Positions 3,772-20,678 are shown, counted from the stretch's first letter. The stretch: 64,000 nucleotides of DNA from an uncultured delta proteobacterium (GCA_963804165.1 CAWDPO010000024.1:1-64000), one strand, 5' to 3'. Numbers and translations: made by a program. The notes: generated by a model not told the origin, from the letters alone.

Positions 3772-4141
3772 TGTCATTCTGAGCTTCAGCGAAGAATGCC
3801 TTCGTTCCAACCAACGCTGAGGTCGATCCACTTCGGATTCATGGACCCAATCAGTTCACTCTTTTTGTTCCGTCGCCAACCTTTGATTTGCTTTTCCCGC
3901 GTTATCGCAGCCTGAACATCACTGCTCTCTTTGAAATAAACAAGCATCGTTAGGTTGTAGCAAGCCGTGAAGCCAAGAAAGATTTTGTTCTTATGTTCGT
4001 AGACGCGGCGCTCGAGGTTGTTCGTAGCGCCGGTGTAAAGCGTACGAGAAGTATTGCTCATGATATAGACGTAATAGCGGTCGCGAGGCATGCCATGATC
4101 CAAAGAGCAGTCGAGACCCTTCGCTGGAGCTCAGGGTGACA
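3772..4141. repeat. Inverted pair of REP-like hairpins (3772-3797 and 4116-4141) bracketing the GIY-YIG gene
   Basis: TGTCATTCTGAGCTTCAGCGAAGAAT versus reverse complement of right arm TGTCACCCTGAGCTCCAGCGAAGGGT: 21/26 identical, 4 of 5 mismatches compensatory within each arm's stem. Confidence 0.85.
3786..4091 (-). CDS. Small stand-alone GIY-YIG nuclease family protein
   Basis: YYVYIM..LYTGATNNLERRVYEHK..AITREKQIKGWRR..NPKW motifs. Confidence 0.9.
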   Translation of the reverse strand: MPRDRYYVYIMSNTSRTLYTGATNNLERRVYEHKNKIFLGFTACYNLTMLVYFKESSDVQAAITREKQIKGWRRNKKSELIGSMNPKWIDLSVGWNEGILR

Positions 4142-4254
4142 GCTAATAGGAACTGTCACTTACCGCGATGACAAATCACTAACCGTCAAGGGAAGGACCG
4201 GACAAAACTAAAAGCCCGCAAAATTGAAATGGAGTCGCGAATCACTTCGTTACA

Positions 4255-4953
4255 CTATACAAAATTCCCATCTCTCATGTTGTAGACTTTTTTGAAATGC
4301 TCCACGGCCTTGGGATCGTGGCTCGCCATGATGACCGTTTTGCCGTACTTCTCGGCAAGGGAGAGAAAGAGCGCAGTAATCGTTTCGGTGTTTCCCGTGT
4401 CCAGATTGCCCGTCGGCTCGTCGGCGAGAATGAGCGCGGGATCATTGGCCAGCGACAGCGCCACGGCAACCCGTTGCTGCTCGCCGCCGCTCAGCTCCTC
4501 CGGCCGTTTGTTCGCTTTGGCGCCCAGGCCGACCATTTGCAGCAAGCCGTCGACGCGCTGTTTGCGTTGCGCCGCATCGACATCGGCGATCAGCATCGGC
4601 AGCTCCAAGTTTTCGCCCGCCGTGAGCGTCGGAATGAGATTGAAAAACTGAAAAACAAACCCGACTTTGTGAAGCCGGTATTTTTCCAGATCGCGCTCGG
4701 AAAGGGCCGCGAGCTTCTGGTCACCGACGAGAATGTCGCCGCCCGTCGCATGATCGACTCCGCCGAGAAGGTTGAGCAGCGTCGTCTTGCCGCAACCCGA
4801 CGGCCCCATCAATGCAACCGCCTCGCCCGGACCGATTTCCCAATCGACGCCCTTCAACGCCCGCACTTGTTCCGCGGAAGTTTCATAGGCCTTTGTCAGC
4901 TTGGCGACTTTGACCGGCACGCCGCGATTCTTGAAAAAACCGTTCTCCGCCAT
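4255..4953 (-). CDS. ABC ATP-binding protein, LolD/MacB (type VII) family
   Basis: GPSGCGKTT Walker A, VGFVFQFFNL, LSGGEQQRVAVA, ADEPTGNLD; GGAGGA RBS before ATG 4953. Confidence 0.9.
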   Translation of the reverse strand: MAENGFFKNRGVPVKVAKLTKAYETSAEQVRALKGVDWEIGPGEAVALMGPSGCGKTTLLNLLGGVDHATGGDILVGDQKLAALSERDLEKYRLHKVGFVFQFFNLIPTLTAGENLELPMLIADVDAAQRKQRVDGLLQMVGLGAKANKRPEELSGGEQQRVAVALSLANDPALILADEPTGNLDTGNTETITALFLSLAEKYGKTVIMASHDPKAVEHFKKVYNMRDGNFV

Positions 4954-4975
4954 GATGTCCTCCGAAGTCACAATG

Positions 4976-5050
4976 ATTGGAGTGATGGAATGTTGGAGTA
5001 CTGGAGTATTGCACTCGGTCCACCCATTACTCCACCATCCATTACTCCAT
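4976..5050. repeat. Intergenic inverted cluster of ~8-nt TGGAGTA-type units
   Basis: TTGGAGTGATGGAATGTTGGAGTACTGGAGTATT followed by complementary CATTACTCCACCATCCATTACTCCAT. Confidence 0.7.
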
Positions 5051-5055
5051 CTTCT

Positions 5056-8025
5056 CTATCCTTCCGTCATGCTCGTCCGCGCCGAGCGGCGGAATACCCA
5101 GAGACTAAACAGCAGCGCGATGGCCACGACCACCGCCAGCAGTCCGAGACTGATCCACACCGTCCAGTCGGAAATGACTAGATGCGTCGGCAGCAAGATG
5201 AACCACCGATTTCAGTTCGCGCAGACTCCAGATCAAGTTCGTCAGACCGAAACCGGCCGCGCCCGCGACCAGCAGACCGACCGCCAGCCCGAGCAATGCC
5301 GGCGCCAAGAGACTCGATGCGAAGAAGCGGAACAACTGCGCCGGTGATACGCCGCGCACGCGCAGAAGCCCGAGCGTGCGGCGGTCTTCCAAATAGTTCG
5401 TCAAGGCGATGGCGAGAATCGCGATCAACGCCAAGAAGCACGCCGCCGACGAGATAGATCCGCATGTTCTCCAGCGCAAGAAAGATAAACATGTCGCCGC
5501 CGACCTTCTTCAGCTCGCGCTTGAGCTCGCGCACTTCCAGCGGGCGAGATTTGAGCGTTTGCGACAGAGACTTCACAATCGGCGCTGAGCGTCGCCGTCC
5601 GGTTTCACGCGCACGAGCAAGAGAATGCGCGGAATCAGAACTTTAAGATTGGCGATTCGCGGGTTGTCCATCGTTCCGACGAGATAGGCGTCGGTGCTGG
5701 AAAGATAGTTCAAGATAATCGATGCGCGCCGAAACATAACTCTGGCGGTCGGAAATGCTGCGCGGCGGCATGCCGGGAAGAAAACCGATGATGCCGCTGG
5801 CCGGAACCAAAACCGGCTTTTTGCTCAGATCGGCGCCCAACAGCACCGGCTCGCCCGCGCTCAAGTTCCAAAACGCCGCCACCGGCGGCGACGCCGCGAT
5901 GGTTTGGCCTTTTAATTCCGTGATCACCTCGCTGAACTTCGCCGGTGACTCCGAGTTTTTCTTCGAAGATGGCGTTTTTCAAATAGCGCTGCGGATCGTC
6001 GATCAGATAAAGCGGCACGCCGCTGAGCCCGTATCCCGGAAAGAAAAAGCCGGGCAGGATCGCTTCGAAGATATACTCGGTCGGAAGTCACCGACGGGTG
6101 TCTGAAACGCCGCTAATCGTTCTTTCAAGGCGGTGCGGATCGCTTGCACCTGGCCGCCGAGTCCTTGCTCGAGTTGTTCCGCCGACACCAGATCGGTGGG
6201 ACTAATCGACACGTGCAGCTCGCTGCCGACTTGCACCGTGGCGCCGCGCAGCGCTTTGTCTTCGAAAGACTTGGACGCGATGCTCGGATACAAGCTCACG
6301 CTCGCCATCAGGCCGACGATCAGAAGAAAACTCGAAATCCGGTGCGGCTTGAGTGACATATGCTTGAGCGACAGCGCGCGCAGCTTGCCGCCGACGAAGT
6401 AAGTCACCGAGCTGAGCAGCCCGCTGATCAATTGGCGCTGCGCGACGAGCAGCGCGACCAGACCGTAAACGAAAAGCGGCAGCGCGATGAAATCGAGCGC
6501 CCGATCGAGCATGGTCGCGGCTTGAACAAATTGAGTCCACGCCGCGCTGTCTTCCTCGCCGGCGACGAGATGCGACGACAAACTGTAATCGACGATCCAG
6601 CCGATAATCTTGTAGGCGCCGATCACGAGCGCGAGCCATTCCAGCGCAGCCGAAACCGCTGCGCGCTTGGGTCAGTTCCGACACCGCCACGCGGCGCGAC
6701 GCCTCGAGCGGTGAGATCGTCGTCGCGTAACGAATCAACTTGCGGCTGATCAGCAGGACCAACACTAAACCGACGATCAAGAACAACAACATCAGCAGCG
6801 GTCCCTGGACGCGTGAGAGGGTAGTCCAAGACAGCACGCCGCCTTCGTAAACATACAAGCGGAATGAGCGTCCCCAGCGTGAGGCCGATGATGCCGCCAA
6901 TCAGCCCGCCAAGGCCGATCGAGATCAATAGGCTTTGGCCGAGCAGTTTTCCCGGCACGCCGCGCAGGCGCATGAGACCGAGCTTGCGCCGCTCATTGAG
7001 AATCAGCAGCGACGAAAGATTCGACGCGAGCATCCAGGCAATCGCGAGCAGAGGAATCGCGATCAGCAGCGTCGCCAGGCCGATCAGGCGGGAGATTTCC
7101 GCCATGCGTTTGAGCAACACCAGAATCGCATTGTCGACGAAGATCGTCGGCCCCAAGGATTTAGATTTCTGGTCAACTTCGGCGTTGAAGCTTCTCGAGA
7201 TTTGCCAGCGAACCTTGGATATCCCAACCCGAGATCAGCGCTTTCGATCGACGCGCGCCAGATGAACGACTTCCGGAAGATATTCTCCCGCGGTCACGTG
7301 AATATCGGTGTGATCGCCCAGCGCTCCGCGGGACAATGCATCGAAGCGCTGGAGCAGTTCGAAACTATGCGGCACGACGAGAATGACGCCGATATAGGGA
7401 ACAAAAGAAATCGAGCCGATCTCGTCCATGAAATAGCGATTCACTTCCGAACGTTCCAAACGCACGATGCCGCCAGCGCCATGTCAAAAACTCCGGCGCT
7501 GGTTTTTTTATGCTCGGAGTAAACTCGCACGGTAAAGCGGCGCGAGCCCTGGAGCGCCAAGAAAGCTTTTCCCATATGCTGCTCGGGACCCACCAGCGCA
7601 AGAAATGCGTTGTTGCCGTTGGCTGCCGTCGGCCGCGCTTCGGGCGGCAATAGCGAAACGTCGGTCGCCGACAGAACCGACACCCAAGGCGAGGCGAGCG
7701 GTTTGCCGTCGACCATCAGAATCGCTTCCGGGGGCGGTTTGGAGCGCAAGAAACTCAAGCTTTCGACCCGTTGAATGCCGGTGATTTTGCGCAGTTCGGG
7801 CGAGACTTCCGCGGAGATCGAAAAATCGGTGGTTTGATAGAGCGCGATGTCCCAGGACAAACGTGAGAGCTGGTCTTCGATATAGAGCTTCAGCGCGTAG
7901 TGGGACGCGAGATTGATCGCCGCCAATAAACCGGCGACTAAGAGAGTGACAATCCCAAAAGCAAAGAAAGCTCTTTTGCCAAGGATCTGTGCGAGTCGGA
8001 CGTGGAGGCTGGTCACGTTTTCCAT
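5056..8025 (-). CDS. Large (~990 aa) FtsX/MacB-like ABC permease, broken by multiple frameshifts
   Basis: Successive same-strand fragments (7441..8025, 7235..7465, 6623..7156, 6003..6626, 5643..6018, 5105..5576) with two FtsX signatures (ERRKLGLMRLRG; DRRTLGLLRVRG) and TM segments; stop at 5056. Confidence 0.75.
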
Positions 8026-8088
8026 TTTGGATTTTAGATTTTGGATTTGAGATCGACGATCAGAATCCGAATTCCGAAATCTAAAATC
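8024..8088. repeat. Intergenic inverted cluster of 7-nt ATTTT(A/G)G units
   Basis: ATTTTGGATTTTAGATTTTGGATTTGAGAT ... AATCCGAATTCCGAAATCTAAAATC. Confidence 0.7.
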
Positions 8089-8118
8089 GCTTGTCCTTTC
8101 AACGGGAAATTGCCAATG

Positions 8119-9818
8119 CTATTTTTTTGGTTTCGGCGATGGATAAAAATACTCGAAGGTGCCGGTCATCGATCTTCCGCATCACTTCGCTAAAAGTTTT
8201 CCACGGATCTTTCGCGTAGTCCTGGAACTTTCCCGGCGCGTTGATTCCGGGAATGTACGGCGACCAATCGTCGCTCAGCACTTCGTCAGGATTGCCGTAG
8301 CGCGACGCCAGAGCGCGGATCTCCGGGCTCTTGAGCGCGTTGACTTCGCCTTTGTCGATCAAGGTAAGCCAGCTGTTTTTGGTGCCGCGTACTCTCACGC
8401 GATAAGTCGGCAGCGTGTTATGGATATGCCACCAGTGATCGTTGGGCACTCCATGTTGCTTGGCGAAATCCATCCATTCCTTGGACTCCGTCGCTTTGTC
8501 CGGTCCATGATCGAGACGAAGACCGAAACCCCAATGAATCACGCCGGCGTTGTTGCGTTCGGAGCCATTGGTCCCTTCCATATTCTCATCCGGCCGCCGG
8601 AAAAACTTCGGATTGGTGCCCATGCCTGCTTCGTAAATCCACCAGTAACCGGGCTGGTCGTGAAACGGATAGGTGAGCTCGTTGATCTTCGGATATTTGA
8701 GAAACTCGCGCCACAGTTCACCGTATAAGCCGCCGCCTTTGACTTCCTTTACATAGCCGTCCTTCACGTGCACTTCGATCCTCGGATAGGAACCGGTGTG
8801 ATTGCTCGTGCCGGCGAAGACGCCATTCACTTTGACCAAATAACGCGCGTTATATTTCTTGGTGAACGCCGGATAATCAACGGAGGAATACGGAAAGCGG
8901 CCCGTCGCCTGATGCGGAAACATGAACAGGTGACCCTGCTGATAGGCTCCTTCCGCCCATGCTTGGGCCTGCTTTTCATCGAGCTCAAAGGAAAAATTAG
9001 TTCCTTCCGGGTCGTTCACTTCGACCCGATCTGCCCACGCAAGCGGCTCGACGACGCGTTCCTCCGCCAGGCGCCAGATATCGCCGGGAAAAGTCGCCGC
9101 CTTGTTCATCAGCTCATAGCGGTTATCGAAGATAAAGTTGCCGATAAAATTTATTGCCATGGGGTTCGATCGACTTGCGCGTCACGGTGCGGCCGCCGCG
9201 CCGCCAGAAAATCGCGTTCACTTCTTTGTGCTGATCGAGATATTTGACGATCGCTTCGGCGACGCTTTTGCCGCCGAAGCGCCGGCCCAGATCGATGAGC
9301 TCCTGCGCGCTATCTTCTTCGCGCTGAAACACCGCCTTGTAAAGATCCGGCCGCCGCTCCTTGAGCCACTTCTTGGGAACTTCGGCGTCGCCGAAACGCT
9401 GTAAAATCCAGGCGCGCATTTCCATGTAGCCCTGCTCCGAGGTGAACCAGCGATTGGCTTTCACCGCTTTCATCGCTTCTTCCTTGCTCACACCGAGCAG
9501 TTGATGCTCAGGAACGATCTGGATTTTTACGCCGCGCTCTTCATAGGCGCGCTTGATCGCTTGCAGGATCATCTCCTCGGCCATCGGCTCGGTGAAGATC
9601 GCAACCGTCTGACCTTTTTCGACCAATCCCAACGGGGTCCTGCCGCCGGTCTGGCGCACCGCCGCGCGCGCAAAAGGCATCACATCTTCGATGGATTTGG
9701 GCGGCCTAACGTAAGATGGAAAGCGCGGTGCGGGATATTTGCCCTTCTCCTGCGCGGCGCCGAAACCGGCGAGCAAGAATAATGATAGCGCGACCAACGC
9801 AATTTTAGAGGCGAGCAT
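8119..9818 (-). CDS. Secreted hypothetical protein, paralogue C (M29 aminopeptidase/NicX-like fold, inferred); frameshifted near 9150-9175 and 8167
   Basis: ORFs 9123..9869 and 8099..9160 together align end to end with the two upstream paralogues; alternative frame gives ...GTFEYFYPSPKPKK* ending at 8119; signal peptide MLASKIALVALSLFLLAGFGAA. Confidence 0.75.
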
Positions 9819-9830
9819 ATCTCCTCCACC

Positions 9831-9859
9831 TTGAACGCTTGAACGTTTGAACATTGAAC
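9831..9859 (-). repeat. GTTCAA 7-8 nt tandem mini-repeat (4 units)
   Basis: TTGAACGCTTGAACGTTTGAACATTGAAC on + strand, just upstream of the paralogue C RBS. Confidence 0.75.
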
Positions 9860-9877
9860 AAGGTTGCACGCGCAGCG

Positions 9878-11575
9878 TTACTTTTTCTTCGGGTAGAAAT
9901 ATTCATAATTCCCGCCGTTCACTTTCTTCATCACGTCGGTGAAGGTCTTCCACGGATCCTTAGCGTAGTCCGCGTATTTGCCGGGCGCCGTGATGCCGGG
10001 GATGTGCGGCACCCAGTCTTCTGCCAGCACTTCGTTGGGCTCACCGTAGCGCGAGGCCAACGCCCGAATTTCCGGGCTCTTGTAGGCCGTGAGCTCACCT
10101 TTGTCGATGATCGTAATCCAACTGTTCTTTGTGCCGCGCACCCGACCGCGATAGGTGACCATCATATTGTGGATATGCCACCAGTGGTCTTTGGGCAGGC
10201 CATTTTGCTTCGGGAAATCAATCCAAGCTTTTGACTCTTCCGGCTTGTCGGGATCGTGCACCACGCTGCCGCCGAAGCCCCAGTGGATCACGCCGGAATT
10301 GTTGCGCTCCGACGTGTTGTTCCCTTCCATGTTTTCGTCGGGCCGTTTGAAAAATTTCGGATTGGTGCCGAGACCGGCTTCGTAAAACCACCAGTAGCCG
10401 GGTTTGTCTTGATAAGGATACGTCGCTTCGTTGATTTTGGGATACTTGTAAAACTCGCGCCACAGGTCGCCGTAGACGCCGCCGCCTTTGACGTCGGTGA
10501 CGTAGCCGTCTTTGACGTGAACTTCGATGCGCGGATATGAGCCCGTGTGGTTGCTTGTGCCGGCAAAGACGCCGTTTACCTTAGTCTGCAGCGGCGCGTT
10601 CCATTTTTTTTGGATCGCAGGGTAATCAACGACGGAATAAGGGAAACGTCCGGTCGCCTGATACGGCGACATGAAGAGATGACCTTGGTTGTACGCGCCC
10701 GAGGCCCAGATCTTTGCTTCTTCTTCGGTTAATTCGAAATGCATGTTCGTGCCTTCGGGATCGAAGGCTTCGACCCGATCGAGCCAGGCGAGCGATTCGA
10801 GCACGCGCTCTTCCGCCAACCGCCAGACGTCGCCTGGGAACGTGGACGCCTTATTCATCAGCTCGTAGCGATTGTCGAAGATGAAATTGCCGAAGAACTT
10901 TGCGCTATGTTGCTTGAGCAACCGCGCCGTGCGCGGCCGGCCGCCGCGGCGCCAAAAGACCGCTTTGATATCTGAATGCTGATCCAGATATTTAATCATG
11001 GCCTCGGCCACTGTCGGTCCGCCGAACTGTTTTGCCAGCTCCCGCTGTTTCTGCGGCACTTCGTCGCCTTTGGTGTAAATCGCGTTGTAGAGATCCGGGC
11101 GGCGCTCCTTGAGCCATTTCTTCGGCACCTCGGCATCGACGAACAGATCGTCGATCCAGCGCCTGACTTCCATGTAGCCTTGTTCCGATGTGAACCAGCG
11201 CATCGCCTTCAACGCCTTTAGCGCTTCTTCTTTGTTCACTCCCAGCAACTCGTGCTCGGACACGATGGAGACTTTCACACCGCGCTCTTCGTAGGCGCGC
11301 TTGATCGCTTGCATCACCATTGAGTCGGCGCCGACTTCCGCAACGATCAACGCCGCCGTGCCTTTTTCGACCAGACCGAGCGGCGTGCGGCCGCCGGTCT
11401 GCCGCACGGCTGCGCGGGCGAAAGGCATGATGTCGTCAATGGATTTGGGCGGCTTCAAATACGAAGGAAATCGCGGCGCAGGATACTTTTTGCTCTCGGC
11501 CGCACGGATGAAATTCGCAGCGACTAACGACGAGAGCGTGGACACGATCACGAACACGAAAATCCGACGGATCAT
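9878..11575 (-). CDS. Secreted hypothetical protein, paralogue B (M29/NicX-like fold, inferred), 565 aa
   Basis: Signal peptide from MIRRIF; DPEGTN, YEAGLGTNPK, ERNNSGVIHWGFG and HWWHIHN motifs; GAGGAG RBS. Confidence 0.8.
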   Translation of the reverse strand: MIRRIFVFVIVSTLSSLVAANFIRAAESKKYPAPRFPSYLKPPKSIDDIMPFARAAVRQTGGRTPLGLVEKGTAALIVAEVGADSMVMQAIKRAYEERGVKVSIVSEHELLGVNKEEALKALKAMRWFTSEQGYMEVRRWIDDLFVDAEVPKKWLKERRPDLYNAIYTKGDEVPQKQRELAKQFGGPTVAEAMIKYLDQHSDIKAVFWRRGGRPRTARLLKQHSAKFFGNFIFDNRYELMNKASTFPGDVWRLAEERVLESLAWLDRVEAFDPEGTNMHFELTEEEAKIWASGAYNQGHLFMSPYQATGRFPYSVVDYPAIQKKWNAPLQTKVNGVFAGTSNHTGSYPRIEVHVKDGYVTDVKGGGVYGDLWREFYKYPKINEATYPYQDKPGYWWFYEAGLGTNPKFFKRPDENMEGNNTSERNNSGVIHWGFGGSVVHDPDKPEESKAWIDFPKQNGLPKDHWWHIHNMMVTYRGRVRGTKNSWITIIDKGELTAYKSPEIRALASRYGEPNEVLAEDWVPHIPGITAPGKYADYAKDPWKTFTDVMKKVNGGNYEYFYPKKK

Positions 11576-11592
11576 CTCAGCTCCTCTCGACC

Positions 11593-11621
11593 TTGAACTT
11601 TTGAACGTTTGAACCTTGAAC
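11593..11621 (-). repeat. GTTCAA 7-8 nt tandem mini-repeat (4 units)
   Basis: TTGAACTTTTGAACGTTTGAACCTTGAAC between paralogues A and B. Confidence 0.75.
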
Positions 11622-11631
11622 GCGCCAGGCG

Positions 11632-13332
11632 CTATTGTTTCGCCTTGATCGGCGGATAAAATCCCTCGTAGTTCCCGCCTTGAATTCGCTTGATTACTCC
11701 GGAGATGGTTTTCCACGGATCTCTTGCATAGTCCTCATACTTGCCCGGCGCGTTGATGCCCGGCAGATGCGGCGCCCAATCGTCGCTCAGTACCTCGCGC
11801 GGATCGCCGTAGCGCGAGGCCAGTGCGCGGATCTCTGGGCTCTTAAATGCGGTCAGCTCACCTTTGTCGATGATGGTGATCCAAGCGCTTTTGGTGCCGC
11901 GCACCTTCACCCGATAGGTCGGCATCAGATTGTGAATGTGCCAGCCGTGATCGTCGGGGAGATTGGCCGTTTTGGTAAATTCCGTCCACTCTTTCGGCAG
12001 CAGCGCTTCCTTGGGCCCGTGCAGCATATTCAAACCGAAACCCCAGTGGACCACGCCGGCGTTGTTGCGCTCGGAAATATTATTGCCCTCCATATTTTCA
12101 TCCGGACGTTTGAAGAATTTCGGATTGGTCCCCAAGCCGGCCTCATGCAACCACCAGTAGCCCTTCTCAGGCATGAAGGGATACTGCGCCTCGTTGATCT
12201 GCGGGTATTTCAAAAACTCGCGCCAAAGATCGCCGTAGACGCCGCCGCCCTTCACGTCCTTGACGACTCCGTCTTTTACCGTGACTTCGATGCGCGGATA
12301 GGCGCCGTAATGATTATTTGTCCCGGCGAACACGCCGTTGACTTTGATCAGCACGGGCGCGAGCCAATTTTTGCTCCATGCGGGGTAATCGACTTTGGAA
12401 TAGGGAAAACCGCGCGTCGCCTGGGTCGGATAAAGATAGAGATGCCCCTGTTGATAGGCACCTTCGGCCCACACTGCGGCTTCCTTTTCGGTCAATGAAA
12501 ATGTGAAGTTGGTGCCTTCGGGATCGGTCACATGAACTTGATCGACCCAGGCGAATGATTCGATGACGCGCTCTTCGGCCAGTTTCCACACGTCGCCGGG
12601 AAAACTCGCGGCTTTGTTCATCAACTCCCAGTGATTGTCGAAGATGAAATTGCCAAGGAGTTTTTCACCCTGCTTACCCATCGCTTTGCGGGTATTGGGC
12701 CGGCCGCCGCGGCGCCAAAAAACGCCCTTGATTTCGGGATGAGCTTCCAAATATTTCTCCAGCAAAGCGCCCATGTTTCGCTGCGCCAGTTTGTTGAACA
12801 TCTCCTTGTGCGCCGGCGTAATCACGTCGTCGTCCCGTGAGAACATCGCCTTGTAAATATCCGGCCGGCGCTCGCGCAGCCATTTTTTTGGCACCTCGGG
12901 ATCGGCGAAGCGCTGCGTGATCCAGGGTTTGATCTCCATGTAACCCAGTTCCGACGTGTACCACTTGTTGGCTTTGATCGCCTTCAAAACCTCCTCACGG
13001 TTGACGCCCGCAAGCTCATATTCCGGGATAATGCGCGCTTCGACGCCGCGTTCCTTATAGGCGCGCACGATCGCTTGCAGCACCGTATCGTCGGCGACAG
13101 GCTCGGTGACGAGGCCGATTAACGTCCCTTTTTCGACTAATCCCAACGGCGTCCTGCCGCCGGTCTGGCGCACGGCGGCGCGGGCGAAGGGCATGATGTC
13201 GTCGATCGATTTCGGCGGTTTGACGTAAGACGGAAAACGCGGCGTCGGGTATTTGGTGGTCTCGGCCGCGCCAAGCGGTAAAACCCACACCAGTGAAACC
13301 AGAAATACCAGAACAGCCATCGTCGACTTCAT
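11632..13332 (-). CDS. Secreted hypothetical protein, paralogue A (M29/NicX-like fold, inferred), 566 aa
   Basis: Signal peptide MKSTMAVLVFLVSLVWVLPLGAA; HEAGLGTNPK, ERNNAGVVHWGFG and HGWHIHN motifs; GGAGG RBS. Confidence 0.8.
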   Translation of the reverse strand: MKSTMAVLVFLVSLVWVLPLGAAETTKYPTPRFPSYVKPPKSIDDIMPFARAAVRQTGGRTPLGLVEKGTLIGLVTEPVADDTVLQAIVRAYKERGVEARIIPEYELAGVNREEVLKAIKANKWYTSELGYMEIKPWITQRFADPEVPKKWLRERRPDIYKAMFSRDDDVITPAHKEMFNKLAQRNMGALLEKYLEAHPEIKGVFWRRGGRPNTRKAMGKQGEKLLGNFIFDNHWELMNKAASFPGDVWKLAEERVIESFAWVDQVHVTDPEGTNFTFSLTEKEAAVWAEGAYQQGHLYLYPTQATRGFPYSKVDYPAWSKNWLAPVLIKVNGVFAGTNNHYGAYPRIEVTVKDGVVKDVKGGGVYGDLWREFLKYPQINEAQYPFMPEKGYWWLHEAGLGTNPKFFKRPDENMEGNNISERNNAGVVHWGFGLNMLHGPKEALLPKEWTEFTKTANLPDDHGWHIHNLMPTYRVKVRGTKSAWITIIDKGELTAFKSPEIRALASRYGDPREVLSDDWAPHLPGINAPGKYEDYARDPWKTISGVIKRIQGGNYEGFYPPIKAKQ

Positions 13333-13407
13333 GTGAACCTCCACGGAGTTCGTAGCTTTCGCCAGTCGAACCAACAGGTAGTTGAATTAGATCTGGAAAT
13401 GATTTGG

Positions 13408-13456
13408 AATCTAGTGATTTTGCAGACGGCTTGTCAAGCGAATTTCGCTGGTCGTC
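13408..13456 (-). promoter_or_regulatory. Sigma70-type promoter of the paralogue operon (copy 1 of a 49-bp duplicated block)
   Basis: TTGACA-18 nt-TAGATT on minus strand; 43/49 identical to 18962-19010. Confidence 0.7.
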
Positions 13457-13566
13457 GAGAGTCTTTTTCAAAAACCATTTCTCAGCCGGAGGCTAAATGC
13501 GCGGGAAGCGAAACGAAAAAAATATTCTCCTCGACGTATCGTGGAATGCGAATGATATTTTGCGCC

Positions 13567-14681
13567 TTACTTGCCAAGAATTTTTTCAGCGAACTCCGCC
13601 GCCGGCCTTCGAACCTTAATGACCTTATCTTCGAGATGGTTTCTCAGCCTGTGATAGTCCGCAAGAGTCATAACGTCCTTGGCGGCGTCGACGCCGATCT
13701 GGCGCATCCATTTGGTATCTACATCCAAACGGCGAGTCGCCTGCTTCATGACCTTCGCGTAAAACTCTTGGCCTTCTTTGCTGAGAAACCAGTTGACGAA
13801 TACTCTCATTGCATTCGGATGGGGCGGATTCTTGACGATTCCAAGCACGCCGTAGCCGCTGCTCGCCGGCAGTCCTTCCTTGGGTGTCGGAAGTTCCTTG
13901 ATCGGCAGGCCGGCGTTAAGAAACGGCTCGTATTCGGAGCGGCCGAGGCCGATGGTCACTGCCAGCTTTCCTTTCGCGAGCGAATCTGCAACCTGGCGAA
14001 GATTGCGGCTCAGGAAAAGTTCTTGTTGCACGAGTTTCTTAAGGTAATCCTCGCCCTTGACCTCCCACATGAAAGACCACAAGGAGATTCCGGACCCGCC
14101 GATGCGCGGATCATTCAAACCGATTTTGCCCTTCCACTTGGGATTGAGAAGATCGTCGAAAGAGCGTAGCTCGTCCGCTTTCGCCAAATCAGCATTGTAG
14201 AACAACCCTTCGGTGCCGGCGTTGGCGACGAATGAATAAAGGAAACGATTGGTCTTTAAGTTATCGTTCCAGATATGGCCGCCCCACCAGTTTTTGGGAT
14301 CTTTCACCTCGGGTAAAATCATATAGGCGCTCACGGCGTCCAGCATGCCATTGTCTTGCAGAGACATCGCCGTCGTCGTTCCTTGAATCAAGCCGTCAAT
14401 GGTGCGCACGCCGGCGTTATACTCCGAAGCGATCCGGTTTGCCGAGTCGGCACCGCGCGACACCAGCAGTTCGGCATCGATGCCGAACTTTTGTTTTAAC
14501 AAGGGCTCCAGTTCCTTTCTTAATTCAGCGCTGGGCGGAATCGCCAACACGATCTTACCCTCGGTCTTAGCCTTTTGCAGCGCCGACTCCCACTCGCTGC
14601 GCCATTCGGCTGCGTTCGCTAGCCGGAACGCGACGAAAATGGCTAGGCCGTCGCGAACAGAGAAACTATTGTCTTCGTCAT
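13567..14681 (-). CDS. Extracellular solute-binding protein (Fe3+/thiamine-type ABC SBP); frameshift in signal peptide near 14645
   Basis: AKTEGKIVL, DDLLNPKWKGKI and PHPNAMRVFVNWFLSKEGQ motifs; ATG at 14681 with AGGAG RBS, one base out of frame. Confidence 0.8.
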
Positions 14682-14913: not shown

Positions 14914-15783
14914 CTATTTCATCGCCATCGCGCGCGCGCCGTAGCTCACGCCTGAAGACGGTTTGATTCCAGCGCACTCAAGGACTCGTCTCGCCACTTC
15001 TTCCGTCGTCGCAAACCAGATGCCTTCGTGCTTCTTCACGTAAGCCATCAGTTCATCGAAAACCTCGATCCGGCCGGGTCGGCCGACCAGAAACGGGTGC
15101 AACGAAAACTGGCAATAGGTGTGGAACGATTTGGATTCCGCATAGAACGTGTCGAAGGATTTTTTCCAGATGGATAGCGCGTCGTCGGGGTCCGCGGTTT
15201 TTCCACCCTGAAAAATGAACATGTCGCCGAACGGTTGGCGCGGCACTTCGACGATGAGTCGGTCGCCGTCCTTCAGAAGATACGGCAGATCGTGCGAAAA
15301 GGAATTGCTGTTCCAAATAAAACCCTGACCGATGCCCAAGTCGGGAGTGAGATGACTTTGGAAGCAGCAGCGCCAACCATTGATCTTTTCGCCCGTAAGA
15401 CCGGTTAAAACCTCGACCGTCTTGCGCATGGTTTCGACTTCTTCTTCCGGCGTCAGCCTCCAGGCTTTTTCATGGTGATAGCCATGCCCGGCAACATCAT
15501 GACCGGCGGCGTGGATCGCTCGAACCGTATCCGGAAACCGCTCCGCCAAGGCGCCGCAGATGACAAACGTCGCTTTGAGATTATATTTCTCCAATACCCG
15601 TAAGACTCGCCAGATTCCCACCCGCGGTCCATATTCGCGCCGGGCATATTCTTCGGCGTCGATGCGGCCTTTTGAATCCGGCTCCAATCCTTCGGCGCCC
15701 TGGTAGTTGAATACCAGATTCACCGCGCACCGATACGGCTCCGGCCATTTGAGCTTTTCCCCGAGAAAAATCTCTTGCAGCAT
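14914..15783 (-). CDS. Polysaccharide deacetylase family (PuuE-like) hydrolase
   Basis: EYGPRVGIWRVL, ATFVI, GHDVAGHGYHH, LHPFLVGRPGR motifs. Confidence 0.85.
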   Translation of the reverse strand: MLQEIFLGEKLKWPEPYRCAVNLVFNYQGAEGLEPDSKGRIDAEEYARREYGPRVGIWRVLRVLEKYNLKATFVICGALAERFPDTVRAIHAAGHDVAGHGYHHEKAWRLTPEEEVETMRKTVEVLTGLTGEKINGWRCCFQSHLTPDLGIGQGFIWNSNSFSHDLPYLLKDGDRLIVEVPRQPFGDMFIFQGGKTADPDDALSIWKKSFDTFYAESKSFHTYCQFSLHPFLVGRPGRIEVFDELMAYVKKHEGIWFATTEEVARRVLECAGIKPSSGVSYGARAMAMK

Positions 15784-15904: not shown

Positions 15905-17041
15905 CTACGCGGCCTTTGTTCCCTTCAATGACGTATCGAGAAACTTCTGCACTTCATCCACATCCATCCACTCAGTATCCCACAGCCGAAAGTATTGCAC
16001 GCCGTCCTTGCGGCGCGAAAGCGGCGGCACGTCGTCCTTTGGGATATCGATCCTCGCCGAATCGCAGCTCCCCTGACTTTTCTGAAAAGAGATTTGACCT
16101 TCGCGGGACATCAGCCAGTTGAGAAAAAGTCTCGCCCCGTGGGGATTGGCGGGCTTATCCATGAGCATGAAGCTGGAAGCGGCCGTCTCGACCACCGGCG
16201 CTTCCTTCATGCGCCGCGGGTCCAAAATATCCACCGGCAGCTTTTGTTCTTTCGCACGCAAGACTTCACGCGGAGAGGTGAAAAGTAAGAAAGCCAGTTT
16301 CCCTTGCGCGAGCCAATCCACCGCCTGGCGCGGGTCCTGGCTCAGCACAAGGTCCATTTCGGTCAACAAACGTTTGAAAAATGGCGGCCCGAGTTCCGGG
16401 TGAAAATAAATCAGCCTGCCGCCCTCGCGACCGCCGGCGGCGCGCGGGTCCATGGAGCCGATCTTGCCTTTCCACTTCGGATTTAGAATGTCGCCAAAGG
16501 ACGTCAGATCTCCAGGTTTCACGAGGTCGGTGTTGTACGACACCATGTCGATGTGCACGCTGACGCACGGCGACAGAATGTACTTCCCTTCGGGGTCGGC
16601 GTATTGGTGCTTTCCCTGCCACCATTTTGATCGGTCCGTCACCTCCGGCAAGATCAGCGCGCCGTCGACGGGCTGCAGTGGAAATGGCTGGGCCCGATAG
16701 AGGGCGGAGGCGGAACCGGTGCCGAGTTTTGCCACATCCGCAAGATATTTGCCGGCTCTTCTCTCCGTCATCAGCCGCGTCACCAGTTGACCCGATCGTC
16801 CGGTAACCACCACAACTTTGATTTTGGAAAACCTCTTTTGAAAGTCATTGACGCTGCCTTCGAGCCCTTCGTTGACATAAAGAACAATCTGGCCTTCTTT
16901 CTCCGCGGCTTGAACCGTTTTGCTCCATTCTTCTTGCCACGCGGCTGCGCTCGCGGCCCATGCCGCGGCAAAACCGCCGAATTGCGCTAAGAGAAACGGA
17001 ACCGCGATGCTGGTTGACGATAGCGAGGATAAATTCTTCAC
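15905..17041 (-). CDS. Extracellular solute-binding protein (Fe3+/thiamine-type)
   Basis: AAEKEGQIV, DILNPKWKGKI, NPHGARLFLNWLMSREGQ; signal peptide. Confidence 0.85.
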   Translation of the reverse strand: MKNLSSLSSTSIAVPFLLAQFGGFAAAWAASAAAWQEEWSKTVQAAEKEGQIVLYVNEGLEGSVNDFQKRFSKIKVVVVTGRSGQLVTRLMTERRAGKYLADVAKLGTGSASALYRAQPFPLQPVDGALILPEVTDRSKWWQGKHQYADPEGKYILSPCVSVHIDMVSYNTDLVKPGDLTSFGDILNPKWKGKIGSMDPRAAGGREGGRLIYFHPELGPPFFKRLLTEMDLVLSQDPRQAVDWLAQGKLAFLLFTSPREVLRAKEQKLPVDILDPRRMKEAPVVETAASSFMLMDKPANPHGARLFLNWLMSREGQISFQKSQGSCDSARIDIPKDDVPPLSRRKDGVQYFRLWDTEWMDVDEVQKFLDTSLKGTKAA

Positions 17042-17807: not shown

Positions 17808-18917
17808 TCATCGCTTGATCAAGCGCTCCGCCGCGGCTAACGCCGGCTTGCGAACCGCGTCCTGCTTTTCTTCGGTGTGACCCTCGAGGCGATGATATTG
17901 CTCCACGCTCATGAATTCCCGCGCCGGCCTGACCGCATAGGGCTCTTTCGGCACCTCGACATCGAGACGCCGCGTCGGTTCCCCGATGGCATTTTGATAG
18001 GTCTCCTGTCCTTCTTTACTCAACAGCCAATTGATGAAGAGCTTGGCGGCGTTGGGATGAGGCGGATCCTTGATCACCGCGAGCACGCCGGAGCCGGTAA
18101 CAGGATAAATGCCGTCTTTGAGTTGCGGCAGCGGCTTGACCGGAAGTCCAGCCTTCACGAAGGACACGAAATTGTCGATGTCCAGACCGATGGTGAGAGC
18201 TACTGTGCCCTTCGCCAAGGCTTCGGCAAGCGGTCTCTCTTCGGCCATGATCAGCAAATTTTGCTGCACGAGCTTCTTTAGAAATTCTTCGCCCTTGGTT
18301 TTCCATAAGAAAGTCCAGTTACCTTGTCCAGCACCGCCGCGCCGCGGATCGCTGTAGCCAATCTTGCCTTGCCACTTGGGATGCAAAAGATCGTCGAGCG
18401 AGCGCAACTCTTCCGGTTTCATGAGATCGCTATTGTACCAGAGGGCGTCCTGAACAAAGGCGAGGAATGAATAGCCATAGCGCTTGGTGTTATCCACGTA
18501 CATATGGCCGCCCCACCAGTTTTTCACTTCCCTGACTTCGGGAAGAATGAATTGCGCTTCGACCGGCTCGAGCATGCCGGCCAAACCAAAAATAATTGGC
18601 GCCGATCCTCCCGTATGGACATCCGTGAGTCGAAGCCCCGCTCTAAACTCGTCGGCAATTTTTTTGGCGACGGCTGCGCCACGGCCCGTAAAGAGCTCCA
18701 ACTCGATGCCGTAACGCTTCTCAAAAACCTCCTTCAAGCTCTTCCTCAATTCGGCGCCCGCTGGTATCGAAACGACTACCTTTCCTTCTTTCTTCGCCGC
18801 AGCGACGATTTGCTGCCACTGAGCGGTCTGAGCATCAGCAAGAGAGGAAACTCCGATGCTCAAAAGGACCAGCCAAGCCTGTCTCGGAGGGATGATAAAT
18901 TTATGCCGCTTTGCCAC
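17808..18917 (-). CDS. Extracellular solute-binding protein (Fe3+/thiamine-type)
   Basis: AAKKEGKVVV, DDLLHPKWQGKI, PHPNAAKLFINWLLSKEGQ; paralogue of 13567..14681. Confidence 0.85.
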   Translation of the reverse strand: MAKRHKFIIPPRQAWLVLLSIGVSSLADAQTAQWQQIVAAAKKEGKVVVSIPAGAELRKSLKEVFEKRYGIELELFTGRGAAVAKKIADEFRAGLRLTDVHTGGSAPIIFGLAGMLEPVEAQFILPEVREVKNWWGGHMYVDNTKRYGYSFLAFVQDALWYNSDLMKPEELRSLDDLLHPKWQGKIGYSDPRRGGAGQGNWTFLWKTKGEEFLKKLVQQNLLIMAEERPLAEALAKGTVALTIGLDIDNFVSFVKAGLPVKPLPQLKDGIYPVTGSGVLAVIKDPPHPNAAKLFINWLLSKEGQETYQNAIGEPTRRLDVEVPKEPYAVRPAREFMSVEQYHRLEGHTEEKQDAVRKPALAAAERLIKR

Positions 18918-19010: not shown

Positions 19011-19265
19011 CAAAGACAAGATGGTTCTTAGGTCTGCCTCCGCCGCATCACAAACTTGATACAGCAGTTGGTGTCGCGGTGATTTCTCGTAGTGTCGCTA
19101 CGCTCGCGCTCGCCGAAAAAATCGTCCAACGAGCCACAATGGCGGATAATACCTTGTGCAGAAAAGCTCGGCTCTCTGAAAAATGACTCGGTGGAATTTT
19201 CGGCAAAATCGCTTGCGTGAGTGATTCTATTCGAGTATCGTTCGCGGGTCAGCAGGTTTTTTGTG

Positions 19266-20678
19266 ATGCGCGTATGCAAAGAACATTTGTTCCTCTTGTT
19301 GGTAGTTACAGGGACTTTCGGATGCGCTTCGACCGAGCGGTTGTCTCAACGCGCCGCTACACCTCCGGCGCAAATTCCGCAGAAATCCGATCTCGAAAAT
19401 AATTTTCCTCAGCCGACGGCCGAATTACTGCCGCCGGATTCGTCCGCGGTTGCCGCCAGCACCGCGCCGATTGATCCAGAGCCAACGCCTACCGCAGCCG
19501 CCGCCGAGGCCAAGCTGCCTGCCTTGACGCCAGTTGAACAAAAACCGGAACGTCCAACTATTCGCGAGAAAATTCCGCAACCCGCCGGTGCAGCGCCGTC
19601 ATCGGCACAACCCGAGCGGGCGCTGCGAGCAGACAATCGCCTGCTTGAATTGTTGGACAAAGATTTGGACAAAGCCGTCGAGCAACCCAAGGAGCACCGG
19701 CGGTTGCGATTTTCAAAAGAAGTCATCGACAACCCTAAGGTGAAGCATTTTGTAGGCTACTATTCCACCACGGGGAAGAGTCGTTTTCAGGAACTGCTGG
19801 GCCGCGCCGGAAAATACATGCCGATGATCGCCAAGGTGCTGAGCCAGGAGGGCTTGCCGGAGGAACTCGGTTATCTGGCGTTACTTGAAAGTGAGTTCGT
19901 CGTCAACACGACCTCGCGAAATGGCGCGGTGGGGTTGTGGCAATTCGTCACCGGCACGGCCCTGCGCTACGGATTGCGAATCGACCAGTGGGTCGACGAA
20001 CGGCGCGATCCGGTGAAGTCGACTCGGGCCGCAGCGGCGTATCTCAAAGACCTGCACGACCGCTACGGCCGCTGGTATCTCGCAACCGCGGCGTATAACG
20101 CCGGACCGGGAACCATCGACAAAGCATTACAGCAGAGCGGCGCGAGGGATTTCTGGAGCATCAAAGCAAAAGCGCAGCTCAGCGATGAAACACGCAACTT
20201 CGTGCCGAAGTTCGTAGCGATAGCCCTGATTGCGATGGATCCAAAGAAATACGGCTTGGATAACGTCGTCTATGAAAAGCCCTTGGATTATGAAGAAGTC
20301 GAACTCAAGGCTCCCATGAAGCTCGCGGCTCTCGCGCAGTCGACGGAAACTGATGTTCCGAGCCTACGGAATCTAAACCCGTCGCTGCTGCGCGACTCGA
20401 CACCGCCCGGTGAGGCGGGTTTTCGGGTCAATCTCCCGGTAGAGAAAGCCGCGGTGTTTCTCGCAAAATCCAATGAAAAAACACTCGAGAAAGATGTCGA
20501 ACCGGCGCCCGTTGTCATGCACGAAGTGAAAAAGGGCGAGACGCTTTTCTCCATCGCCCGCCGTTACGGCCTCGAAGTGAGCGCACTAATGGATTTCAAC
20601 GGCCTAACCAACTCGCGAGTGCTGATCGGCCAGAAGCTGAGAATCCTGCTGCAAGGTTTGCGAGGAGTGCTGCGCTGA
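19266..20678 (+). CDS. mltD: MltD-like lytic murein transglycosylase lipoprotein with C-terminal LysM
   Basis: Lipobox-like TFGC; LALLESEF, GAVGLWQF, DERRDPVKSTRAAA, AAYNAG, ETRNFVPK; LysM HEVKKGETLFSIARRYG. Confidence 0.85.
   Translation: MRVCKEHLFLLLVVTGTFGCASTERLSQRAATPPAQIPQKSDLENNFPQPTAELLPPDSSAVAASTAPIDPEPTPTAAAAEAKLPALTPVEQKPERPTIREKIPQPAGAAPSSAQPERALRADNRLLELLDKDLDKAVEQPKEHRRLRFSKEVIDNPKVKHFVGYYSTTGKSRFQELLGRAGKYMPMIAKVLSQEGLPEELGYLALLESEFVVNTTSRNGAVGLWQFVTGTALRYGLRIDQWVDERRDPVKSTRAAAAYLKDLHDRYGRWYLATAAYNAGPGTIDKALQQSGARDFWSIKAKAQLSDETRNFVPKFVAIALIAMDPKKYGLDNVVYEKPLDYEEVELKAPMKLAALAQSTETDVPSLRNLNPSLLRDSTPPGEAGFRVNLPVEKAAVFLAKSNEKTLEKDVEPAPVVMHEVKKGETLFSIARRYGLEVSALMDFNGLTNSRVLIGQKLRILLQGLRGVLR

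Follow-up and report, generated by a model that had tools for sequence, protein, structure and literature searches.

What would a bacterium do with several exported copies of one metalloprotein whose genes lie beside those of an ATP-binding cassette (ABC) machine of the type VII (mechanotransmission) kind? This question is raised by a locus in a stretch of 64,000 nucleotides (nt) from an uncultured delta proteobacterium (GCA_963804165.1 CAWDPO010000024.1:1-64000, hereafter the window), a soil bacterium of the Binatia group. Every gene of the cassette lies on the minus strand, with intergenic gaps of about 50-100 nt. Going downstream, that is with falling coordinates, the order is a sigma-70-like site, the paralogues A, B and C, a permease and an ABC ATPase. 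The reading we favour, to which we give a probability of about one half, is that the locus encodes an envelope system like E. coli YbbAP-TesA, in which a single transcription unit specifies both a type VII ABC machine and the set of exported metalloenzyme paralogues with which it would act.

Type VII ABC systems have long been regarded as efflux pumps, lipoprotein extractors and cell-division regulators, and to our knowledge it was not until 2025 that one of them was described as paired with an enzyme of the periplasm, in just one system of E. coli. Thus, one example of this kind of system is known; what is new here is the enzyme family and the layout with several paralogues. Our literature search found nothing joining 'Type VII ABC', 'periplasmic' and 'NicX', no link of the enzyme family to a type VII transporter, and no mention of PF26233, the family named 'NicX' in the ESM Atlas. 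The cassette suggests that such pairing is a general principle, at work also with a wholly different enzyme family that has yet to be studied. If the enzymes do act on molecules that the machine pulls out of the membrane, the cassette would provide a second, chemically unrelated case of 'extract and degrade' beside YbbAP-TesA, widespread in uncultured soil bacteria.

Predicted fold of the paralogues

The three paralogues are arranged in tandem and are mutually 52-67% identical. Paralogue A (11632..13374, minus strand), a predicted exported metalloprotein of the NicX/M29 fold, is intact. Its open reading frame (ORF) of 580 amino acids (aa) begins at a TTG, but translation probably starts from the ATG at 13332 (MKSTMAV...), for a protein of about 566 aa; homologues have 562-571 aa. 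Paralogue B (9878..11716, minus strand) is likewise intact, with a 612-aa ORF from a GTG and a likely start at M47 (11578, MIRRIF...), and is 64% identical to A. Paralogue C (8099..9869, minus strand), which adjoins the permease in relatives, is broken into two pieces in different frames (9123-9869 and 8099-9160). An earlier note on this DNA had described three tandem signal-peptide proteins of about 565 aa; the tandem trio and the hydrophobic N-termini stand, but C is not an open frame of that length.

An AlphaFold2 model of paralogue A, built on 54 diverse relatives, is confident (predicted local distance difference test, pLDDT, 90.5; predicted template modelling score, pTM, 0.89). Its only significant Foldseek matches (E values 1.5e-10 to 6e-3) are the M29 aminopeptidases PepS, AmpT and AmpS, the dioxygenase NicX and the crocagin proteins CgnB and CgnE. 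The top eight are all M29 or NicX (E 1.5e-10 to 7e-8) and are followed by CgnB and CgnE. VIA-align ranks NicX first (7cn3_C, Z 16.8, root-mean-square deviation 4.4 over 302 residues), and the aligned part of the chain, 2-350, is the whole of NicX. The M29 enzymes reach Z 9.6-11.2 over 282-322 residues, CgnE 10.5 and CgnB 10.2, whereas unrelated chains stay at Z 6.8 or below and touch only the N-terminal alpha/beta domain of A. The model of A thereby shows a predicted NicX/M29 fold for the paralogues, in agreement with the M29/NicX likeness claimed in the earlier note.

The family is nearly invisible to sequence models. With E values up to 10 allowed, Pfam still has no match to A, to B or to the two pieces of C, and NCBIfam holds no model for the enzymes or for the permease pieces. 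A six-frame search of the whole genome with PF02073 (Peptidase M29) returned no match, whereas four control genomes did match. Sequence searches of PDB chains with A, with the 54-sequence profile, with a distant paralogue from the same genome and with a permease profile gave no meaningful match. Among the 120 homologues listed, 6 carry a precomputed PF26233 assignment.

Homologues are numerous: 307 matches were found in a collection clustered at 90%, nearly all of them unnamed proteins of Binatia-type metagenome-assembled genomes (MAGs), and the family amounts to 566 cluster representatives at E <=0.001. By a rough hydropathy rule, 17 of the 40 near-full-length representatives that keep the core motifs (among 150 listed) have a hydrophobic N-terminus and 23 do not. 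The family therefore counts hundreds of members, goes without a name in Pfam or NCBIfam, and is predicted to comprise exported as well as cytoplasmic forms.

The N-terminal stretch and predicted export

At the start of each paralogue is a hydrophobic segment, after which come small residues (..GAA/E.., ..RAA/E.. and ..GAA/Q..). In the model of A this segment is a low-confidence helix, and the folded domain begins at residue 41, with pLDDT >95 from there. No lipobox cysteine is conserved in the N-terminal segments of the paralogues. From the features of the hydrophobic segment, we infer that the paralogues are probably exported.

Behind this segment lies a stretch of 43 residues (KYPxPRFPSY...LVEKG) of which 39-41 are identical between copies, while only 21-23 of the 43 third codon positions agree. 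Because nearly all residues are identical while the third positions have diverged, this stretch is kept by selection on the protein and not by recent gene conversion. The motifs EAGxGTNP, SERNNxGVxHWGFG, WHIHN and P-T-Q are likewise present in all three copies. Both the near-invariant N-terminus and the M29-type motifs reported in the earlier note, with WHIHN for HxD and P-T-Q, were thus recovered.

Candidate metal ligands

To place these motifs on the M29 metal site, an M29 alignment built from ten genes of the same phylum was compared with the family profile by hhalign (87% probability, E 3.9e-6). In this alignment the bridging Glu of M29 corresponds to E411, the third Glu to E435 (displaced by one position) and the first His to H443. 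The HxD motif falls on the strand W478-H-I-H481, most naturally on H479 and H481, in a register that is ambiguous by 1-2 positions around WHIHN, and the glutamate of PxxE falls on Q318. The substitutions of HxD by HxH and of PxxE by PxQ that had been proposed from the motifs are therefore also what the profile alignment suggests. The full dinuclear ligand set of M29 is not kept in this alignment, with PxxE Glu replaced by Q318 and HxD by H479-x-H481.

The candidate ligands are conserved well beyond the three copies. Among the 54 diverse relatives, D284 is kept in 52, H311 in 48, H355 in 51, E411 in 40 (plus 4 with D), E435 in 40 (plus 9 with D), R436 in 47, H443 in 49, H476 in 53, H479 in 52 and H481 in 50. 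We also collected 133 complete exported copies from 89 loci, that is copies with an open frame of at least 500 aa and the motifs used for picking, a set without paralogue C of the window. All ten positions are retained in 130-133 of these 133 copies, and no paralogue among them has lost the candidate ligand set. Position 318 is Q in 132 of the 133 exported copies and is variable in the wider family.

Compared with the M29 aminopeptidases AmpS, AmpT and PepS (PF02073; PDB 1ZJC, 2AYI, 4ICQ), the paralogues share the predicted fold, and the bridging Glu, second Glu and first His of those enzymes align with E411, E435 and H443. They differ in that PF02073 misses them, in the replacement of the PxxE Glu by Q318 and of the HxD Asp by His, and in location: M29 enzymes are cytoplasmic dimers, whereas the paralogues are predicted to be exported.

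NicX/Hpo, 2,5-dihydroxypyridine 5,6-dioxygenase (PDB 7CN3, 7CUP; PF26233), is the best fold match. Its substrate residues are Leu104 and His105. For the metal, the consulted sections of the NicX paper name His265, Ser302, His318 and Asp320 as Fe(II) ligands (PMC7910607), and two metal-site His appear to be retained here as H443 and H479, as judged through the M29 alignment. By the same alignment the position of the Asp is His481 here, and further His and Glu are invariant. According to the same sections NicX is cytoplasmic, with 350 aa (PMC7910607), whereas the family here is predicted to be exported and has about 215 extra residues, which form a helical insert (about 118-215) and a C-terminal extension. 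Finally, none of the nicotinate/maleamate-pathway genes NicC, NicD, NicF and NicE lies near the cassette in the window.

The crocagin proteins CgnB and CgnE (PDB 6ZSV, 6ZSU) too are tandem paralogues with an M29-derived fold outside Pfam M29. In the consulted part of the crocagin paper the ligands of CgnB are Glu161, Glu252, Glu274, His280, His291 and Asp293, and the second Cgn copy loses its metal site (PMC10070186). Here, by contrast, all paralogues keep the candidate ligands. Further differences are that there is no gene for the precursor of a RiPP (a peptide made by the ribosome and modified after translation) and no CgnC-like gene, that the proteins are predicted to be exported, and that they are about 260 residues longer.

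Permease and ATPase

The ATPase gene (4255..4971, minus strand) is intact, matches ABC_tran at E 5e-33, is 99.6% identical to its counterpart on a related MAG contig (L017) and belongs to the LolD/FtsE/MacB/YbbA group. Its best NCBIfam scores are to LolD (219 bits), FtsE (190), MacB (182) and YbbA (181), in keeping with the LolD-like ATPase of the earlier note, and all lie below the equivalog cut-offs.

The permease gene (5056..8025, minus strand) is of the YbbP type with a double FtsX, and FtsX Pfam models match two of its pieces. It carries about 11 single-base indels, and its coding sequence is scattered over all three frames between 8025 and about 5056. The permease of about 990 aa read by the earlier note is thus not an open frame in the window; open orthologues of 980 aa (L016) and 984 aa (L021) are found elsewhere, in short-read assemblies. 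Since the window copy is broken, we modelled the intact L016 orthologue, which is about 68% identical to it in the aligned pieces.

The model has a long transmembrane helix (TM) 1, an alpha/beta periplasmic domain (56-294), TM2-6, TM7, a second domain (598-826) and TM8-10. Its best match is E. coli YbbP, both by Foldseek (E 2e-13 over the whole length) and by VIA-align (Z 19.2 over 627 residues); BceB, LolC/E, HrtB, MacB and FtsX follow below. The permease is therefore shown by this orthologue model to be YbbP-like, with a predicted ten helices and two periplasmic domains, and the FtsX-like type assigned in the earlier note is borne out.

According to the consulted sections of its description (PMC12646458), the ten-helix YbbP has its domains between TM1-2 and TM7-8, and the partner of YbbAP in a 2:1:1 complex is TesA, a hydrolase of the periplasm. 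The system predicted here resembles E. coli YbbAP-TesA (PDB 9GE6-9GE8) in its single-chain ten-helix permease with periplasmic domains between TM1-2 and TM7-8, its separate ATPase of the LolD/MacB type, the lack of an adaptor or outer-membrane duct gene, and a gene for an exported enzyme alongside.

The differences are also considerable. TesA is an SGNH esterase, whereas here there are two to five paralogues of a 565-aa metalloprotein of NicX/M29 fold. The permease is about 180 residues longer than YbbP and about 13% identical to it, the ATPase scores 181 bits against a YbbA equivalog cut-off of 336, and a complex of permease and enzyme is a prediction from gene adjacency.

The earlier note had also remarked that no adaptor or TolC gene accompanies the transporter, which is the arrangement that would set it apart from MacAB-TolC. 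Accordingly, no HlyD-type adaptor or TolC was found among the ORFs scanned at 1-27 kb of the window, nor near the cassette in the flanks of two related loci (L016 and L024).

Conservation of the enzyme-transporter pairing

In species-representative genomes we found 13 loci, 10 with a permease and/or ATPase beside the enzyme array, 1 without and 2 cut by contig ends. The positives include alphaproteobacterial records (Beijerinckiaceae, Rhizobiales and Hyphomicrobiales), with the order enzyme, enzyme, ATPase, permease, so that the synteny spans phyla. A larger set of 76 metagenome loci holds 35 with the transporter, 3 informative negatives and 38 cut by contig ends. Among informative loci the transporter is thus adjacent in 35 of 38 (metagenome) and 10 of 11 (genome), counts that overstate independence since the sampled loci are mostly close relatives (at least 47% identity). 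The co-occurrence with the FtsX/LolD pair proposed in the earlier note is therefore frequent, and homologues without the transporter are the minority (3 of 38 and 1 of 11).

A tree of the 133 complete copies further links copies to their position. In a C-type clade, 25 of the 28 members have the permease as the next gene downstream. The second and third positions belong to A-type and B-type clades, and the A and B of the window fall there; two more clades consist of copies downstream of the ATPase. Because well-supported clades follow gene position, the paralogues are old and have been maintained separately. Such separate clades would fit different specificities, successive steps or a heteromer.

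More distant members of the family

The genome also holds a predicted cytoplasmic member of 460 aa, about 32% identical to A and without the N-terminal hydrophobic segment (G000 contig C2:21729-23111; L001:7730-9112, minus strand). It sits between a polysaccharide-deacetylase-family gene (L001:9227-10138) and leuC/leuD. This arrangement is common to five relatives in the genus, within a leuA-leuB-asd-truA ... leuCD cluster, and gives no clear functional clue.

As a separate observation, a polysaccharide-deacetylase-family (CE4) gene also lies upstream of the cassette in the window (14914-15783, minus strand), so that CE4 genes are near both the exported array and the contig C2 paralogue of the same genome and may be a recurring partner of the family.

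Distant members of 413 aa adjoin genes for solute-binding proteins, for a Rieske/LigXa-type oxygenase and for a LigB-type dioxygenase. These contexts of solute-binding proteins and oxygenases hint at small organic substrates. Among 11 homologues of odd length, one has an extra domain, a C-terminal CarboxypepD_reg on a 772-aa protein (P0125). This domain is usual in secreted or outer-membrane-associated proteins; the fusion fits an extracytoplasmic location and gives no hint of the substrate.

A possible mechanism and its alternatives

In the system that we favour, two copies of the LolD/MacB-type ATPase would sit on one ten-helix double-FtsX permease, and the ATPase cycle would move the periplasmic domains of the permease. 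These domains would take an amphipathic or membrane-embedded substrate out of the inner membrane's outer leaflet, or bring it to the enzymes in some other way. Cleavage by the enzymes would follow at a metal site, mono- or dinuclear, either by amide or peptide hydrolysis (M29-like) or by oxidative ring cleavage (NicX-like), and the several paralogues would stand for different specificities or successive steps. By analogy with YbbP, the proposal of the earlier note that substrate or product is moved by the transporter can be sharpened to a possible hand-over of membrane-extracted molecules to a periplasmic enzyme.

A more far-reaching form of this idea is tentative. In it, the paralogues would form a novel class of metalloenzymes in the periplasm, whose site is rich in His and may have three histidines or be dinuclear. 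Docked on an ABC extractor like YbbP, they would degrade or remodel the extracted membrane molecules (e.g. lipopeptides, aminolipids or hydrophobic N-heterocycles), with three to five conserved paralogues forming an assembly line of different specificities. With the substrate in hand, a large group of 'hypothetical proteins' from Binatia and further soil bacteria would gain a function, and a role of the aminopeptidase/dioxygenase scaffold outside the cytoplasm would be shown.

Several points weigh against the YbbAP-TesA-like reading. Physical contact of enzyme and permease is a prediction from adjacency and from the analogy with YbbAP-TesA. The permease model is of moderate quality (pLDDT 68.3) and comes from an orthologue and not from the window sequence, and the register around WHIHN is ambiguous as noted above. 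Three informative metagenome loci hold enzymes without a transporter, and one acidobacterial single-copy locus also has none. L048 is one of the three metagenome loci: its three-copy array (4246-9501), whose first copy is 92% identical to A, lacks the transporter, and in its place comes a gene for a dCache-HAMP-GAF histidine kinase (9585-12008) on the other strand. The relatedness of the sampled loci counts on this side as well. A complex prediction for the two periplasmic domains of the L016 permease with the adjacent L016 paralogue (score 0.00, mark 0.32) speaks neither for nor against contact, since isolated domains and three chains lie outside the calibration of the tool.

Could the ABC machine act on the enzymes and not on their substrate? 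As in FtsEX-EnvC, it might switch on or position the periplasmic enzymes without extraction, and the substrates would then be soluble or part of the cell wall. Chains of FtsX, LolC/E and MacB are among the further matches of the permease model (Z 9-14), and type VII systems are known from the consulted abstracts to regulate periplasmic hydrolases. In addition, the window has a gene for a LysM-containing SLT lytic transglycosylase (19221-20678, plus strand) within a few kb of the cassette, and L016 has one at a similar distance. The best match of the permease, however, is YbbP, with two full periplasmic domains of the Porter/Sabre type and not the small FtsX domain. Furthermore, there is no gene for an EnvC-like coiled-coil adaptor, and in the alphaproteobacterial locus the SLT gene is not a neighbour. 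We regard control of this type as unlikely.

An equally unlikely alternative is that enzymes and transporter are only loosely coupled. The enzymes would process a soluble periplasmic nutrient (a peptide or an N-heterocycle), the products would be taken up via the nearby solute-binding proteins, and the ABC machine would clear or tolerate a by-product or merely be co-regulated. Directly upstream of the cassette lies a periplasmic solute-binding protein gene (13567..14550, minus strand; SBP_bac_8/1/11/6), and two further such genes follow on the same strand (15905-17041 and 17808-18917; SBP_bac_1/8/11 families). Genes of the same Pfam families (SBP_bac_1/6/8/11) flank the cassette in two related loci (L017 and L024) and the distant 413-aa homologues in two others (L120 and L121).

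Many family members without an N-terminal hydrophobic segment, in catabolic-looking contexts, and the arrays without a transporter point in the same direction. The tight, ordered synteny (35/38 and 10/11 informative loci), together with the copy-specific position beside the permease, nonetheless exceeds what co-regulation usually gives. Moreover, the three upstream solute-binding-protein genes of the window, which are paralogous, are 'orphan': no importer permease or ATPase adjoins them.

Finally, release of the Lol type, in which the paralogues would be N-terminally anchored cargo freed from the membrane by a permease that recognises the KYPxPRFPSY segment, is very improbable: the first 43 mature residues are far more constrained than the rest (about 64% overall) at diverged third positions, and LolCDE chains are among the permease matches, but there is neither a conserved lipobox cysteine nor a LolA-like carrier gene, and the conserved segment is part of the confidently modelled folded domain.

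Frame breaks in paralogue C and the permease

Whether the YbbAP-TesA-like system would work in this organism depends on how the breaks in paralogue C and the permease are read. As reference we used L017, a contig of the related MAG with 89% DNA identity and the same gene order, over 24 kb. Relative to it, the window has about 13 frame-breaking single-base indels, all within 5196-9144. In paralogue C, an extra base near 9144 splits the frame and another near 8166 shifts the C-terminus; the L017 orthologue of C is an open frame. The permease lacks one base each at 7474 and 7241 and has extra bases at 6858, 6651, 6102, 6084, 5941, 5715, 5584+5582, 5437 and 5196. Outside this interval, uncompensated indels are intergenic, except for one near 2084, at the start of the 1089-2102 ORF, and a break in A that belongs to L017 itself.

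We consider it fairly probable that these indels are consensus errors of the assembly and not real decay. Contigs of relatives from three independent soil metagenome runs side with L017 at 12 of these positions, and for paralogue C they omit one base at 9145. Because no public sequencing run matches the window's own sequence (best word share 0.11), the indels were compared with relatives' contigs and not with source reads.

The alternative, that paralogue C and the permease are true pseudogenes and that the system no longer works in this organism, is a serious possibility, although the less probable one. All 13 frame-breaking indels fall in 5196-9144, and A, B, the ATPase, rpoB, rpoC and the remaining long ORFs of the window are free of them. 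This restriction to one 4-kb stretch spanning exactly two genes, as gene inactivation would look, is a point against an artefact; the rest of the window as well as rpoB and rpoC (8 kb) are open frames. The cassette is also dispensable in the genus: of 25 genomes, only 5 strongly match the long exported form (E <1e-100), a tally in which G005, an unpublished genome, is taken as a non-holder. Two relatives (G001 and G012) have broken copies too.

The substitution pattern argues the other way. The ratio of non-synonymous to synonymous substitution rates (dN/dS) against L017 is 0.046 for C and 0.044 and 0.059 for the permease parts, compared to 0.052 for the intact A and 0.044 for the intact B. 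Since the broken genes have values as low as those of their intact neighbours, there is no trace of relaxed selection. With a dN of 0.016, the permease would also leave little room for a neutral phase long enough for 11 indels.

Natural indel spectra are deletion-biased and repeat-associated. Here, 11 of the 13 indels are insertions, against 2 deletions, and none (0/13) lies in a run of three or more identical bases, unlike such spectra. In addition, L017, from a closely related long-contig MAG, and another relative (L018) carry frameshifts at other, unshared positions of the same genes, as assembly errors would give.

A genome-wide screen of ORF coverage, which cannot separate small from broken genes, lists 137 low-ORF regions, and this locus is not among them. 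Because of the frame breaks in the assembly, automated gene calls at this locus will be fragmentary.

In the two relatives with broken copies mentioned above, the copy is 56% identical to A (L006, G012:C18, about 1380-1620; and L005, G001:C339) and is interrupted after ..FSSEQG in both. The lesions at that shared spot differ: one is a missing base in a G run and the other a deletion of about 25 nt.

Upstream region and neighbouring genes

Just upstream of paralogue A lies a match to the sigma-70 consensus, TTGACA-18 nt-TAGATT (13408..13437, minus strand), a weak candidate for a promoter. The single promoter of the earlier note finds a matching site there, but such sites are not more frequent than chance, with 2 in the 11-kb region against 4.7 expected. 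An Rfam scan of the leader (13300-13650) gave no riboswitch.

Other neighbours in the window include a class II aldolase and an M20-like peptidase. The SLT-LysM gene mentioned above has a counterpart near the cassette of L016 (5583-7217), on the opposite strand in both. Directly downstream of the ATPase, a small gene with a GIY-YIG nuclease domain (3786-4103, minus strand) is shared with L017 (74% identical) and is not present in more distant loci.

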